Assembly (NCBI GenBank): GCA_963815115.1
Contig: CAWFFN010000009.1
Span: 1,344,001 to 1,408,000 of the forward strand
DNA from: an uncultured delta proteobacterium
GTDB lineage: Bacteria > Desulfobacterota > Binatia > DP-6
DNA: 64,000 nucleotides
Direction of reading: 5' to 3'
A program made the position numbers and the translations under genes. Shown here in pieces: positions 30,611 to 46,695 of the stretch (within the stretch, counting starts at the first letter, position 1; the number at the start of each line of letters is the position of its first letter). The notes below the pieces were generated by a model that saw only the letters and a list, made by a program, of their open reading frames with translations, was not told the origin of the DNA and made no database searches.

Positions 30611-32249
<1,639 letters not shown>

Positions 32250-41428: not shown

Positions 41429-42467
41429 ATGACGAGGTCGAGTCTGGCGCTGGACCGCGGCGGGGTCCTCTGGGGCGCAGTGGCCGTTGCGCTCGCCCTC
41501 GCGCTCGGAGCGCTCGGCAGCGGTGGTCTGCGGTGGTTCGACGCGGCACTCGCCGGCTATCTGCTCGGGACGCTGTTCGCCATCTTCGGGACCGTTTACC
41601 GCTACCGCGTGTGGTTGCGGCGCCCGCCCACCGCACTGCTCAACCGCCGGGGATGGGAAGCGTTCCGGCGCGGGGGCGTGGGGAACGTCGCGCGTCTGCT
41701 CGGGCTGGTATCGACCAACCTCGTCGGGCAGGCGTTCATACGCCACCGCTCCACCTCGCGCTGGATCGCGCACCAGCTCGTCTTCTGGGGCTGCGTCCTG
41801 GCCGCGCTCGTGACCTTCCCACTCGTCTTCGGCTGGCTCCACTTCGAGTCGGTCGGCCAGGACGCCGTCACGGTATCGCGCCTTCGTCGCGAACGTCGCC
41901 GTTCTCGGCTTCGATTCCCACGGCATCGTCGGCTGGCTGATGTTCCACGCGCTCGACGTCGCCGCTGTCCTCGTCCTGGCGGGCGTCTTCCTGTTTCTCG
42001 GCCGCCGCGTTCGCGACCCCGGGGCGCTCGCGGTCGAGCGCGCCAACGACTTCCTCGCCCTCGCCGGCCTGTTCGCCGTGTCCGTGACCGGTTTGATGCT
42101 CACGGCCTCGGCGCTCTGGATGGGCGGCCGCTTCTACACGTTCCTGACCACCGTGCACGCCCTGACCGTGATCATGGGGCTGATGTACCTCCCGTTCGGC
42201 AAGCTCTTCCACATCTTCCAGCGACCCGCGAATCTCGGCGTGCAGTTCTACCGGCAGGCCGGCGCCGACGGGCCGCCGCAGCACTGCTGCGAGTGCGGCG
42301 CCGCGTTCGCCTCCGCGCTGCAGGTCGGGGATCTCAAGGACGTCCTGCCGCAGGTCGGATTCGACTACGCGCTGGCGGGCGGCGGTCACTATCAGGACGT
42401 CTGCCCGGCCTGCCGCCGGCGCCTGGTGGCGCTCGCGCAGACGCGACGCGTCGCGGGGTTCGGCTGA
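41429..42467 (+). CDS. NarI-like polytopic membrane protein with C-terminal Cys4 ribbon; +1 frameshift near 41868
   Basis: YRYRVWLRRPPT, RWIAHQLVFWG, MFHALD, VHALTV, LPFGKLFHIFQRPA, CCECG...CPAC; halves join on removing one base. Confidence 0.72.
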
Positions 42468-44705
42468 TGGCCACGCCCCCCGCTGAGCGACGCGGAGCTG
42501 ATCGCGCGCTACGGACCGCACCTCAACGAGGCGCCCCCGGGCGGATGGAACCAGGGCCTGGACGTCGACCGCGAGGTGAAGACGCATTGCTGCTTCTGCG
42601 GCCAGCAGTGCGGCATCATCCTCAAGGTGAAGGACGAGCGGGTGGTCGGGTTCGAACCCTGGTACGAGTTCCCCTTCAACGAAGGCAAGCTCTGCCCGAA
42701 GGGCGTCAAGCGGTACCTGCAGGGCGAACCATCCCGATCGCCTGCTCGAGCCACTCGAGCGTGCGCCGGACGCGCCGGGCGGCTTCCGGCCGATCGGCTG
42801 GGACGCCGCCCTCGATCGCGTGGTGGCCGAGATCCGGCGCATCCAGGGCGCCCACGGTCCCGATGCGTTCGCGATGCTCTCGGGCGTCTCGCTGACGAAC
42901 GAGAAGTCCTACCTGGTCGGCAAGTTCGCCCGCCTGGCGCTGGGCACGGCCAATCTCGACTACAACGGCCGGCTCTGCATGGTCTCGGCCGGCGCCGCGA
43001 ACAAGAAGGCGCTCGGCATCGACCGGGCGAGCAACCCGTGGAGCGACATCCGCCTGGCCGACGTGGTGTTCGTCGCCGGGGCGAACGTCGCCGAGTGCGC
43101 TCCCGATCACCACCAGCTACATCTGGCAGGCGCGCGACCGGGGCGCGACGCTGATCGTCGCCGATCCCCGCGTCACCCCGCTGGCGCGCACCGCCGACGT
43201 GTTTCTCGGCCTGCGTCCGGGCACCGATTCGGCGCTCATGGGCACGATCCTGCACGTGCTCATCGTGCGCGACTGGCTCGATCACGACTTCATCGATCAG
43301 CACACCGAGGGCTTCGCGGAAGCGGCCGAGGCCGTGCGCGACTACACGCCGGCCTGGGGCGCCCGCGTGACCGGCGTCCCGGCGGCGCGCATCGAGCGCG
43401 CCGCCGAGCTCTGGGGAACCGCGAGGACGGGTATGCTTGCTGCACGCGCGCGGGATCGAGCACCACACCAAGGGCGTCGAGAACGTCCTGTCGTGCATCA
43501 ATCTCGGGCTGGCGACCGGCAAGTACGGCAAGCCCGGGTGCGGCGTGACGACGATCACGGGCCAGGGCAACGGCCAGGGCGGCCGCGAGCAGGGACACAA
43601 GTGCGACCAGCTGCCGGGCAATCGCGACATCACGAATCCCGAGCACCGCGCCTACGTCGCCTCCGTGTGGGGCTGCGACGTCGCCGAGATCCCGGGCAAG
43701 GGCAAGACCGCACAGGAGATCATGGACGCGATCCATGCCGGCGAGATCAAGGGCCTGCTCTCGATCTGCTTCAATCCCGCGGTCTCGCTGCCCGACACCA
43801 CCTTCACCGCCGCGGCGCTGGACCGCCTCGAGTTCTATGCCGTCATCGACTTCTTCCTCTCGGAGTCCGCGCGACACGCCGACGTCGTCCTGCCGGGATC
43901 GCTGCACGAGGAGGACGAGGGCACCTCGACGACGGTGGAGGGACGCGTCGTCAAGATCAATGCCGCCATCCGCCCGCCCGGCAAGGCCCGGCGCGATTGG
44001 CAGATCCTCGTCGACCTGGCGCACCGGCTCGGGAAGGGCCGGTACTTCCCCTACGGCAGCACGCGGCAGATCTTCGACGAGCTGCGCGTCGCCTCGCACG
44101 GCGGGACCGCCGACTACACCGGGATCACCTGGCAACGCGTCGAGGACGAGCTCGGCGTCTTCTGGCCGTGCCCGGCGGAGGGCCATCCCGGCACGCCGCG
44201 CCTGTTCGAAGGCGGGCGCTTCTACACCGACACCGGCCGAGCCAGGTTCCACCCCGTCCGCCATCGCCCGCCCGCCGAGGTCGTCGACGACGAGTTCCCG
44301 GTCTGGCTGACCACCGGTCGCGTCGTGAGCCAGTACCTGTCGGGGACCCAGACCCGCCGCATCGCGCCGCTGGTCGCGCAGTATCCGGAGCCACTGTGCG
44401 AGATGCATCCGCTCCTCGCCGCGCGCCACGGCATCCAGGACGGGGACGTGGTCCGGGTGACGTCGCGCCGCGGCGCCATGACCCTGCCGGCGGCGGTCGT
44501 CGAGACCATCCGGCCCGACACGGTCTTCATCCCCTATCACTGGGCCGGACGGCAGGCCGCCAATCAGCTCACCCATCGCGACCTCGACCCGATCTCGAAG
44601 ATCCCGGAGTACAAGGTGTCGGCGGTCCGTATCGAGCGCGTGGGTCCGGGCGGTGCGGTGCGAGATGCGCGCGACCTGTCGCTGCGCACGGGGAGCGCGT
44701 CGTGA
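42467..44705 (+). CDS. Molybdopterin oxidoreductase catalytic subunit (NasA/NarB-like); four +1 frameshifts (about 42480, 42726, 43102, 43437)
   Basis: Reconstructed [19 protein letters not shown]..., [66 protein letters not shown]. Confidence 0.85.
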
Positions 44706-45331
44706 CCCGTCTCGCGGGCGTCGGGGAGAAGATCTTCGTCATCGATCAGAGCCGCTGCATCGGCTGCCAGTCGTGCGTCCAGGCCTGCGGCGAGTGCGGC
44801 ACCCATCGCGGGCACTCGATGATCCATCTGGACTTCGTCGACCGCGGCGCCAGCACGCAGACGGCTCCGATGGTGTGCATGCATTGCGAGGACCCGACGT
44901 GCGCCGAGGTGTGTCCCGCCGACGCCATCAAGCAGAACGAGGACGGCATCGTGCAGTCGGCGCTGAAGCCGCGATGCATCGCCTGCGCCAACTGCGTCCT
45001 GGCCTGCCCCTTCGGGGTCCCGAAGCTCCTGGTCGAGCTCAACCAGATGATGAAGTGCGACATGTGCTACGACCGCACCTCGCAGGACCTCGCCCCGATG
45101 TGCGCCTCGGTCTGTCCGAGCCAGGCGTTGTGGTTCGGGACGCGCGAGCAGTTCGCCGCCGGCCGCGCCGGCGTGCTCGTGAACGACTTCGTGTTCGGGC
45201 GCCAGGCCGTGCGCACCAAGGTCTACACGGTCGCGCGCGAGGCCGGACCGCTCGACGTGCTGGCGGGGCGGCAGGCACGAGCGTGGCAGGACGATCCCTT
45301 CGGCCTCGACGAGGAGGGCGCGCATGGCTGA
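44702..45331 (+). CDS. 4Fe-4S dicluster electron-transfer subunit (DmsB/NrfC-like)
   Basis: [42 protein letters not shown]...CASVCP; GTGA overlap. Confidence 0.9.
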
Positions 45332-45822
45332 CGCGGACACCCCGAAGTGGCGGGTCGATTTCCCGTTCACGGCCGCCGGCGAGGACGACGTGACGCGCCG
45401 GGAATTCGCGCGCTATCTGGTGCTCGCGTCGGGGACGTTCGCCGCCGGCAGCGTCGGCGTCGCCCTGCTGACGACCCTGCGCCCGGTCAAGCGCGGCGCG
45501 CCGCGGGCGATCGTCGCCTCGCACGCGCTGCCTCCGGGCGCGACGTACCTGTTCCGTTACCCCACGGAGTTCGACCCGGCCATGCTGGTGCGCTTTCGCG
45601 GCGGTGATCTGCGCGCCTATAGCCAGAAGTGCACGCACCTCGGCTGTGTCGTCACCTGGGATCCGGCGAGCGAGCAGATGCTCTGTCCCTGTCACGAGGG
45701 CGTGTTCGACGCGCGCAGCGGGCTGGTCGTCGCCGGGCCGCCGCAGCGTCCGCTCGGGCGCATCGAGGTCGAGGAGCGGGCCGACGGCATGGTGTGGGCG
45801 CTCGGGGCGGGAGGTCGACTGA
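45324..45822 (+). CDS. Rieske [2Fe-2S] protein with Tat-like N-terminal anchor (reads through into next gene as assembled)
   Basis: [11 protein letters not shown] + [24 protein letters not shown]; removing one G near 45805 gives WALGREVD* with TGATG overlap. Confidence 0.82.
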
Positions 45823-46013
45823 TGGCCCGGGCGCGCCAGGTGTCCTCCGCGATCGGGATATTCGTCGGCGTGCTGCTCGCGCTGCAGGTCTTCCTGCTCT
45901 CGGTCGGGCTCGACGCCCTGCACGCGCACGACGAGCGGCTCGCGTGGACCGCGGCAGCGCTCTCGGTCGTGCTCGCCGCCGGGTCGGGCGCCTTCTACCG
46001 GTATCTGCGCTGA
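45822..46013 (+). CDS. Small two-TM protein (DUF6755-like)
   Basis: [33 protein letters not shown]...WTAAALSVVLAAG; TGATG coupling on both sides. Confidence 0.6.
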   Translation: MARARQVSSAIGIFVGVLLALQVFLLSVGLDALHAHDERLAWTAAALSVVLAAGSGAFYRYLR

Positions 46014-46695
46014 TGGCGGGCGAGCCGGGTCGCGTCCCGCCCGCACCACCCGGGTCCGATCGGCGGCGACATGGCGGCGGTCCTGTGGGGCATCGCGCGC
46101 CGGCTCCAGCTGCCGGCCCTCGAGGCCCGTCATTCCCAGATCGGCGTCCTCGGTCTGTTCGCCCTGGTGAACGGCGTCATCTCCATCGGGCTGATGGCGA
46201 TGGCAGCCTTGCTGACGGGCGCTCCGTTCATCTTCCCGTCGCTGGGACCCACCGCGTTTCTGCTCTTCTACACGCCGACCCTCCCCGCGGCGTCGCCGCG
46301 CAACACGCTCGGCGGGCATCTGATCGGCGCCCTCGCCGGCTATCTGGCGCTGGTCGTCTTCGGCCTCACGGAACGCGGCCCGGCGCTGGCCTCCGGGGTG
46401 GAGTGGGCGAACGTCGGCGCGGCCGCGCTGTCGCTCGGTCTGACCAGCGGCGCCATGGTCTGGCTGCAAGGTTCCGCACCCGCCGGCAGGCGCGACCACC
46501 CTCATCGTCTCGCTCGGCATCCTGCACCGGCCCTGGCAGCTCGCCGTGCTGATGCTCGCCGTCGCCCTCCTGCTCGTCCAGGGCTTCGTGATCAACCGCC
46601 TGGCGGGCATCGACTATCCGGTCTGGGCGCCGCGGCCGGGTCCGGCACCAGGCGCGCCGCCCGCGCGCGTCCCCGATCGGACGAGCGTCACCTGA
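46013..46695 (+). CDS. HPP-family membrane protein; +1 frameshifts near 46050-46070 and 46468
   Basis: PSLGPTAFLLF, ASPRNTLGGH, and after correction KVPHPPAGATTL. Confidence 0.78.

Follow-up and report, generated by a model that had tools for sequence, protein, structure and literature searches.

An operon conserved across phyla is predicted to encode a quinol-dependent, cytoplasm-facing nitrate reductase of undescribed subunit design

What does an enzyme do whose catalytic subunit resembles soluble assimilatory nitrate reductases, and whose partners are a membrane cytochrome, a four-cluster iron-sulfur (FeS) protein and a Rieske protein? The question is raised by a six-gene operon in an uncultured delta proteobacterium (GTDB lineage Desulfobacterota; Binatia; DP-6), found in positions 1,344,001 to 1,408,000 of contig CAWFFN010000009.1 (assembly GCA_963815115.1). 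This whole 64,000-nt stretch is referred to as the window, and coordinates of the operon, hereafter the module, are given on its + strand. The reading that we favour, at a probability of roughly 60%, is that the operon encodes a membrane-bound, quinol-dependent, cytoplasm-facing dissimilatory nitrate reductase with an undescribed subunit design, and that the breaks seen in this copy of the genes are assembly errors. Its role would then be in respiration or redox balancing, not in assimilation.

The gene content of the module, its conservation and its family resemblances are directly observed. Four core genes, encoding the membrane, catalytic, FeS and Rieske subunits, occur in the same order in all 10 loci found in nine genomes of the same class. 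A scan of a species collection (one genome per species) yielded at least 597 relatives; among the best 80 loci, which we examined, 74 carry the four core genes together, and in the remaining six a contig end falls where the missing gene would be. Four Armatimonadota-type loci have the FeS and Rieske genes upstream, not downstream. Such constancy of gene order in the relatives' loci and in the species collection indicates that the arrangement is not due to chance, and the linkage of NarI-like, Nas-like, FeS and twin-arginine translocation (Tat)-type Rieske genes, first seen in the window only, is thus conserved across phyla.

Carriers of the module come from about ten phyla (Actinomycetota, Bacteroidota, Acidobacteriota, Verrucomicrobiota, Armatimonadota, Deinococcota, Chloroflexota, Myxococcota, Planctomycetota and Pseudomonadota), and include cultured species of Flavobacterium, Chitinophaga, Algoriphagus, Chryseobacterium, Mucilaginibacter, Pontibacter, Pelagicoccus and Deinococcus. 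In a profile search of sampled genomes with the membrane subunit (E <= 1e-30), matches were obtained in 67 of 301 Acidimicrobiia genomes (48 of the 226 high-quality ones; 38 of 119 genera) and, counting the seed genome, in 6 of 301 Bacteroidota genomes. The same profile gave no match in the four genomes available from the window organism's own genus.

The catalytic subunit belongs to no curated family at that family's own threshold. Its best model is NasC (NF047855), with 788 bits for L020 (the closest intact relative of the window module, from genome G038, at 81% nucleotide identity), 852 bits for locus L069 and 783 bits for locus L056, against a cut-off of 1100. The alpha subunit of formate dehydrogenase (Fdh; TIGR01591) follows with 597-624 bits (608 for L020; cut-off 666.25), and the L020 ortholog reaches 256 bits on the NapA model (TIGR01706; cut-off 930.55) and 53 bits on the NarG model (TIGR01580; cut-off 1084); on the AioA model (TIGR02693), where 359 bits are required, the score is 148.7. 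When a tree was built with FastTree, the 91 module-linked catalytic sequences formed one clade (SH-like support 100, stem length 0.75), to which neither a NirB-linked Nas-type paralog nor the formate dehydrogenase paralogs belonged. The outgroups in this tree are paralogs from our own analysis rather than named Nas, Nap, Aio or Fdh references, and long branches meet at its root; within that frame, the subunit has its own clade and is not nested in characterised NasA. Together with the conserved membrane partners, the clade and the scores below the NarG, NapA and NasC cut-offs agree with the preliminary description of this operon, which held that it matches none of Nar, Nap and Nas.

An alignment of the catalytic sequences from 90 orthologous loci revealed a conserved N-terminal extension of about 36 residues (window 42467-42575) that precedes the Cys motif of the FS0 cluster. 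This extension is present in most of the loci, starts with Met-Ala and carries conserved GPH and GG(W/F) motifs, and contains neither a twin arginine nor a hydrophobic stretch. The absence of a Tat signal, originally noted on a shorter gene model, therefore holds for the correct N-terminus as well. One possibility is that the extension is a docking peptide for a chaperone or for another subunit.

Two groups of related genes were considered and set aside. A paralog with 34% identity in the window genome (G000, contig C5) was a candidate for a second Nas, and was rejected as an FdsA-type formate dehydrogenase located beside FdhD. Paralogs of 36-40% identity in relatives were rejected as module members, having no partner genes adjoining them; two of these exceed the formate dehydrogenase cut-off and one adjoins a NirB-type gene.

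Which substrate would such an enzyme use? At the Mo-ligand position the module subunit has Cys-Met, which we take to be the Nap/Nas pattern, in place of the Cys/Sec-His seen in five formate dehydrogenases from the PDB. This pair of residues, the rank of NasC as the closest model and the neighbouring genes for NarK, SLAC1, the FeS-repair protein RIC and molybdenum cofactor (Moco) synthesis, described below, together point to nitrate. A complex that instead handles chlorate, selenate, iodate, arsenite or formate, or that works as an oxidase, is in our view very improbable. Such a function would fit a catalytic subunit that lies under every curated cut-off and whose nearest solved structures are formate dehydrogenases, and the Rieske partners otherwise known among Mo enzymes are those of arsenite oxidase and iodate reductase; but the Cys-Met pair departs from formate dehydrogenases, the four-Cys FS0 motif and the low AioA score argue against an arsenite oxidase, the NarK-family neighbours speak for nitrate, and Apibacter, with a Rieske-containing cluster that is probably this module, is positive for nitrate reduction.

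The membrane subunit resembles NarI, although marginally. Pfam Nitrate_red_gam matches its C-terminal half with 24.1 bits (cut-off 22.9), and in NCBIfam the best models for the L020 protein are TmcC, QmoC and HmcE, all weak at 22-33 bits against cut-offs of 240-300. Its AF2 model (pLDDT, the predicted local distance difference test, 93) has as its best fold matches (VIA) EtfD of M. smegmatis (9ojn_A, Z 11.4) and NarI of E. coli (1q16_C, Z 10.8), the third-best fold having a Z of 8.1; superposition on NarI covers 179 of 224 residues with a root-mean-square deviation of 5.2. By these measures it just qualifies as a di-haem cytochrome b of the NarI type. Cytochrome b or b6 of the bc type was not matched among these families and folds, which are those of NarI, TmcC, QmoC, HmcE and EtfD.

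Four histidines in or near the membrane segments had been proposed for this subunit. Three of them, H118, H246 and H264, are invariant, as is K261, and H246 and H264 lie 18 residues apart on one helix. The fourth is not one fixed residue: it is provided by H141 (in 67 of 82 sequences) or H176 (in 69), and one or other is present in 80 of the 82. A similar refinement applies to the cytoplasmic tail with four cysteines, which is present in the window and kept in the Acidimicrobiia, Deinococcus, Acidobacteriota and Chloroflexota types, and is thus specific to certain lineages; elsewhere, for example in Bacteroidota, only C289 remains, and it alone is invariant. Counts of Lys and Arg place this tail and the loop 61-119 inside the cell.

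The FeS subunit matches Fer4_11 with 71.8 bits and carries sixteen conserved Cys in four motifs. Its NCBIfam matches (FDH-beta, DmsB and HybA) are all under cut-off, and it reaches 38.2 bits on the NarH model (TIGR01660), for which the cut-off is 524. The Rieske subunit matches Pfam Rieske with 38.7 bits; its best NCBIfam models are PetC, QcrA and AioB, again all below cut-off (AioB 37.9 bits against 95.65). In this protein the conservation of R25 and R26, of box I (C103, H105, C108) and of box II (C121-P-C123-H124) is complete or reaches at least 98%, and both cysteines of the bc1-type disulfide are invariant. Like the small subunits of Aio and Idr, it is a Rieske protein with a Tat signal.

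We modelled the complex of cytochrome b, FeS subunit and Rieske protein as three chains, using an alignment of 40 rows per chain and scoring the Rieske chain alone. The model obtained an ipSAE of 0.81, against 0.13 for the best control; this mark is reached by 58 of 80 solved complexes and by 2 of 110 mismatched pairs, a calibration that is only rough for self-made alignments and three chains. Separate runs agreed in at least 82% of contacts, and the partners had a pLDDT of 79 or more. No solved structure that pairs a Rieske protein and a NarI-type cytochrome is known to us, and the score is therefore unlikely to reflect a memorised structure of this kind.

According to the model, Rieske residues 7-24 would contact residues 65-85 of the FeS subunit and the Lys/Arg-rich cytochrome b loop 61-69, and the Rieske helix 27-42 would pack against the membrane helices. 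The cluster loops of the Rieske protein (101-112, 122-126 and 137-142) are predicted to contact cytochrome b loops of the opposite face (135-175 and 227-243). Since these modelled contacts lie on opposite faces, the Rieske head would be outside the cell and the FeS subunit inside. The pairing of Rieske protein and cytochrome b that had been suggested for this operon is thus recovered in the model, except that the Rieske head is placed on the outer (P) face and not beside the catalytic subunit.

An active site facing the cytoplasm, as originally suggested, is consistent with the N-terminus without signal peptide, with the transporter neighbours, with the neighbouring RIC and with the complex model. 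It is unlikely that the enzyme instead faces the periplasm. In that case the catalytic and FeS subunits, which carry no signal themselves, would fold in the cytoplasm, be exported together with the Rieske protein by means of its Tat signal (hitchhiking) and reduce nitrate outside. Arsenite oxidase provides a precedent, its large subunit AioA being exported on the Tat signal of AioB, and in the module the twin arginine is invariant, the boxes and both disulfide cysteines are of the bc1/Aio type, and AioB is among the nearest NCBIfam Rieske families. Moreover, AioA is placed within the Nas lineage in the accessible part of Wells et al. 2020. Against such export, the Rieske head and the FeS subunit are modelled at different faces of the membrane, contact with the FeS subunit being confined to the N-terminal tail of the Rieske protein; NarK, SLAC1 and HPP carriers would also be purposeless for an outward-facing enzyme in genomes without nitrite reductase. 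RIC is a cytoplasmic protein, and in all cases known to us the partners of NarI-type cytochromes b bind at the inner face.

The genes next to the module provide the physiological context for a cytoplasm-facing nitrate reductase. Neighbours were counted by clustering over 90 loci. Carriers of the major facilitator superfamily (MFS) belonging to the NarK family stand beside the module in 33 loci and SLAC1/TDT-type anion carriers in 18; RIC, above its NCBIfam cut-off, is found nearby in 12, and Moco genes are represented by MoeA (8 loci), MobA (7) and MoaA (7). A TauE-type protein (6 loci) and an Alginate_exp-type porin (7 loci) also recur. No nitrite reductase, NIR_SIR included, was found among the conserved neighbours of these 90 loci.

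Some HPP proteins transport nitrite, and the sixth gene of the window module, with a TM_HPP match of 60.4 bits (cut-off 27.2; window 46071-46499), had been put forward as a nitrite carrier. In the window organism nitrite is probably exported through this protein. An HPP ortholog is present in only 10 of the 90 loci, those of an Acidimicrobiia-type branch, and NarK- or SLAC1/TDT-type carriers are found elsewhere.

Is the module part of nitrogen assimilation? We surveyed five named genomes bearing the module for NIR_SIR, NarG, NapA and Nas-like genes. In Flavobacterium chungangense, Chitinophaga arvensicola and a metagenome-assembled genome (MAG) of Opitutus, a further Nas-like gene lies far from the module and no more than about 15 kb from NIR_SIR. 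A Geothrix MAG (G303, C9:43774-60806) carries a full narG about 11 kb from the module and also NapA, and has no NIR_SIR; in the genome of Deinococcus rhizophilus, which has the module, no NIR_SIR, NarG or NapA was found. The neighbouring genes, together with separate nas genes or the lack of NIR_SIR in these genomes, suggest that the module is a second, non-assimilatory nitrate reductase.

The window genome itself is less clear-cut. It has no match over cut-off to NarG, NapA, NirK or NirB, and its sole NIR_SIR protein (556 amino acids; C7:201500-207500) adjoins a NuoF-like gene and a truncated NuoG-like gene, an arrangement that, judged by gene content, may represent an NADH-linked sulfite or nitrite reductase. 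One could envisage an assimilatory nitrate reductase that is fed by the quinone pool rather than by NAD(P)H or ferredoxin, and that delivers nitrite to a siroheme nitrite reductase. We regard this as quite unlikely. The nearest curated family is indeed the assimilatory NasC, the window genome combines its one NIR_SIR protein with no other nitrate reductase, and a Rieske ferredoxin, NasG, serves Nas in Paracoccus according to the accessible text of PMC3475470. Yet three of the five named genomes keep a separate Nas-like gene near NIR_SIR and the other two lack NIR_SIR, nitrite reductase is absent from the conserved neighbourhood, RIC and the nearby narG of Geothrix indicate a respiratory context, and the Rieske protein of the module is membrane-anchored and of the bc type, not of the NirD/NasG type.

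A further question is whether the window copy is functional, given that seven to nine single extra bases break its genes. In the gene for the membrane subunit the frame passes from 2 to 0 at a single +1 shift near 41859-41923; the catalytic gene has four, near 42475, 42723-42726, 43098-43104 and 43437-43438 (frames 0, 1, 2, 0), and the HPP gene has two, near 46040 and 46466 (frame 0 to 1). The shift near 42475, which sits in a run of C, is the additional one that follows from a catalytic start at ATG 42467. In L020, every gene is in a single frame, and relative to this locus the window has unpaired single extra bases at 41868-41923, 42726, 43104, 43438, 46040 and 46466. Consistent positions were obtained from the membrane-subunit profile, which matches the window in two pieces (41444-41869 and 41859-42458), and from a frame model based on GC content at third codon positions (GC3), with its four strongest frame switches at 41874, 42723, 43098 and 43437.

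Similar patches are found throughout the window genome. The frame model lists 382 frameshift candidates genome-wide, about 7 per 100 kb of coding sequence, and 123 of them fall in 27 clusters consisting mainly of +1 shifts. In one such cluster, taken as a control (contig C7, 137490-141480), the housekeeping genes pyrC (dihydroorotase), carA and carB are split in the middle of Pfam domains across successive frames, in a genome whose completeness is rated 100%. For three of the approximately eight break sites, covering contigs exist in public soil metagenome runs. At site 42475 a contig of run X1 (~99% identical) is one base shorter, at depth 2.7 of 2.7, and at site 46467 an X1 contig is also one base shorter, at depth 3.3 of 8.45; at site 42722 the shorter contig is from run X3 (~94% identical), at depth 2.84 of 18.2. 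The X1 contigs leave the sites ~41870, 43100 and 43437 uncovered, and runs X2 and X3 contain almost none of the window's words, being mostly fragments of relatives that match the conserved parts.

Because of the 27 patches in the genome, the split of pyrC, carA and carB, and the absence of the extra base from the outside contigs, we consider the extra bases in the module to be very probably assembly errors. The preliminary description had reckoned with the possibility of real frameshifts and hence a dead operon, and there is little likelihood that the extra bases are true mutations in a remnant. Decay of a recent acquisition would agree with the absence of the module from the four genomes of the same genus and with the grouping of the window copy with copies of another family, and most break sites have no outside read support. 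However, every shift is a single extra base with no in-frame stop and no deletion, amino-acid identity to L020 holds at 72-96% in every piece, the genome has comparable patches even in housekeeping genes, and the extra base is missing at all three sites that outside contigs cover.

These patches have a practical consequence, in that gene calls anywhere in the window genome need checking for them. The sole other frameshift candidate of the frame model in the 64-kb window lies near 31569 on the minus strand. A membrane-subunit gene split in two frames was also seen in the Acidimicrobiia genome G168 (C14:5493-6471), where the split is near profile position 157, almost as in the window genome.

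We propose the following scheme for the favoured quinol-dependent nitrate reductase, in which we infer the substrate, the electron donor, the direction of electron flow and the conservation of energy. Menaquinol would be oxidised at the outer face of the NarI-like di-haem cytochrome b, where the cluster-bearing tip of the Tat-inserted Rieske protein would also dock. The two haems would carry electrons across the membrane into the four-cluster FeS subunit at the cytoplasmic face, from where they would pass to FS0 and to the molybdenum bis(pyranopterin guanine dinucleotide) (Mo-bisPGD) centre of the NasC-like subunit, reducing nitrate to nitrite in the cytoplasm. Protons released outside on oxidation and consumed inside would make up a Nar-like redox loop. 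The adjacent carrier, HPP in the window and NarK- or SLAC1/TDT-type in other lineages, would import nitrate and export nitrite.

Several observations weigh against this reading. The catalytic subunit is under every curated cut-off, so that nitrate as the substrate depends on resemblance and on neighbouring genes. For the membrane subunit, Foldseek found no match at E <= 0.001, Z scores of 10.8-11.4 can be reached by chance for helical bundles, and the fourth haem ligand is not invariant, 2 of 82 sequences having neither H141 nor H176. As only the Rieske chain was scored in the complex model, the side on which the FeS subunit lies follows from its contacts and the positive-inside rule. Export of the entire soluble part would be an equally possible use of the invariant twin arginine, and a Rieske head at the outer face would lack an evident function if the haems carried both electrons. 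In the window organism, the NIR_SIR protein could reduce nitrite, and assimilation is thus possible there. Finally, the outside contigs have low depth at each of the three covered break sites, and X1 may be the source sample of the window itself.

A further conceivable reading is that the Rieske protein and the NarI-type cytochrome b form a Qo-like quinol-oxidising site. One electron would then travel through the haems to cytoplasmic nitrate, and the other through the Rieske protein to a periplasmic acceptor or back to the haems. This would be a third kind of Rieske/cytochrome b pair, and the module would also be a surviving link from soluble Nas to the Rieske-bearing arsenite oxidases and iodate reductases. 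We offer this as a speculative extension that is unlikely to be correct.

How does the favoured nitrate reductase compare with known systems? The NarGHI complex with NarK (E. coli, PDB 1Q16) is alike in its cytochrome b of the NarI fold, its four-cluster FeS subunit, its cytoplasm-facing Mo-bisPGD subunit and the adjacent nitrate/nitrite carrier. However, the catalytic subunit of the module has about 740 residues and is NasC-like with a Cys ligand, compared with the 1,200 residues of NarG, and its FeS subunit is far from the NarH threshold. The module also adds a six-helix membrane subunit with a cytoplasmic tail, a Tat-type Rieske protein and a tiny membrane protein, and no NarJ gene was seen in its operon. 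The enzyme would therefore, as judged from sequence and model, work like Nar while belonging to none of Nar, Nas and Nap.

NasC of Bacillus and NarB of cyanobacteria represent the nearest curated family, and share with the module a similar size, a four-Cys FS0 and the lack of a signal peptide. In contrast to them, the module subunits are below the family threshold and form their own clade on a long stem, and their partners are the membrane cytochrome, the four-cluster FeS subunit and the Rieske protein, not NasB/NirB or ferredoxin. Furthermore, the module stands apart from nitrite reductase genes and occurs in genomes that also possess classical nas clusters. It differs from Nap in that the catalytic subunit is below the NapA threshold and has no Tat signal.

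Haloarchaeal Nar clusters contain a Rieske protein and a cytochrome b, with NarG and NarH outside the membrane, so that the earlier statement that Nar uses NarI without a Rieske protein fails for them. The Apibacter preprint, in its accessible part, says likewise. With these clusters and with the bc1 and b6f complexes the module shares a Tat-anchored Rieske protein with bc-type boxes and disulfide, whose tip is modelled at the outer face of a di-haem cytochrome b. Unlike in bc1 and b6f, this cytochrome b has a NarI/HdrE/TmcC fold, there is no cytochrome c1 or f, and the electron sink would be a cytoplasmic Mo enzyme.

Among Mo-bisPGD enzymes, a Rieske subunit is otherwise known to us only from AioAB and IdrAB, and AioB is one of the nearest relatives of the Rieske protein of the module. 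AioA differs in having, in the accessible source text, a 3Fe-4S cluster and no protein ligand to Mo, compared with a four-Cys FS0 and a Cys at the ligand position in the module, and Aio has neither a four-cluster subunit nor a cytochrome b. In the Tmc, Hmc, Qmo and DsrMK-type complexes of sulfate reducers, too, a NarI-like cytochrome b connects a redox protein in the periplasm with an FeS protein in the cytoplasm. Their partners, however, are cytochromes c and CCG-domain proteins and not a Rieske protein with a Mo enzyme.

The preliminary description knew of no characterised example of such a complex, and we found neither a description nor a characterisation of it in the full-text literature, supplementary files being outside the scope of that search. 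For DUF6755, the family that the small membrane protein of the module resembles, no papers were found in the literature. The accessible part of the Apibacter preprint describes a 'NAR' cluster in which a Rieske protein replaces NarI, with three narK copies, Moco genes and no nitrite detoxification. Apibacter adventoris is positive for nitrate reduction. The 'NAR' cluster is probably the same module. In the accessible text of Wells et al. 2020, the clade of Nas, Aio, Nap and cytoplasmic Fdh is never associated with four-cluster or membrane-anchor subunits, a published rule that the module contradicts. The survey of Wells et al. 2023, in its accessible part, assigns 18.6% of the superfamily to NasC/NasA.

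If the favoured reading is true, the module would be a fourth design of nitrate reductase whose catalytic gene is scored as 'assimilatory', and it would join a Rieske protein and a NarI-type cytochrome b in a new combination. Current teaching recognises three kinds of prokaryotic nitrate reductase (Nar, Nap and Nas), and environmental surveys count narG and napA as markers of respiration and nasA/narB as markers of assimilation. About a fifth of the sampled Acidimicrobiia carry the module. Since it is present in cultured bacteria, the proposed function can be tested at the bench.

Within the window, open reading frames and Pfam matches on the frame pieces define six genes between 41429 and 46695, all on the + strand (Table 1). 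The junctions overlap throughout. In the sequence TGATG, the catalytic ATG at 42467 shares bases with the stop codon of the membrane gene, the GTG start of the FeS gene at 44702 overlaps the catalytic stop (GTGA), the Rieske ATG at 45324 lies inside the end of the FeS gene, the ATG of the small protein at 45822 overlaps a TGA of the +1 frame (TGATG), and the HPP ATG at 46013 is part of a TGATG overlap with the preceding stop. These overlapping starts and stops imply tight coupling between the genes, which bears out the initial description of six coupled genes once the +1 insertions are corrected. All motifs quoted in that description were found again in the window, including TRREF followed by a membrane helix and the CxxC...CPxC tail.

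Two of the earlier gene models changed. The catalytic start was moved to ATG 42467, and the Rieske and small membrane proteins, which in the window are read in frame as one open reading frame (45324-46013), are two overlapping genes in L020; at this junction two further bases differ between the window and L020.

Table 1. Genes of the module in the window, with coordinates on the + strand after correction of the +1 shifts.
Gene product	Start	End	Strand	Length	Pfam	Features
NarI-like di-haem cytochrome b membrane subunit	41429	42467	+	~345 aa	Nitrate_red_gam	six predicted membrane helices; cytoplasmic C-terminal tail with CxxC...CPxC
NasC-like Mo-bisPGD catalytic subunit	42467	44705	+	~740 aa	Molybdop_Fe4S4, Molybdopterin, Molydop_binding	
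Four-cluster [4Fe-4S] electron-transfer subunit (DmsB/FdnH/HybA type)	44702	45331	+		Fer4_11	unbroken
Rieske [2Fe-2S] protein (bc1/b6f/Aio type)	45324	45822	+			N-terminal tail; twin-arginine motif TRREF; one membrane helix
Small DUF6755-like membrane protein	45822	46013	+	~63 aa	DUF6755 (weak)	
HPP-family membrane protein	46013	46695	+		TM_HPP	

DUF6755 (PF20540) matches the window Rieske reading frame weakly, with 21.3 bits against a cut-off of 27, and the small protein of L020 has no match in NCBIfam. By tblastn it is present in 23 of the 90 loci, in the same Acidimicrobiia-type branch as HPP.

The window copy has 84% amino-acid identity to that of G038, which belongs to another family, and the deeper-branching copies of its own family have 64-69%. 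This grouping with copies of other families, together with the lack of the module in the four genomes of the same genus, suggests from sequence comparison that the module may have been acquired laterally within the class. Public names given to the partner proteins are unspecific or mistaken; in RefSeq and UniRef the NarI-like cytochrome b of Flavobacterium and Chitinophaga (L069, L108, L060) is named 'MFS transporter' or 'hypothetical protein'.

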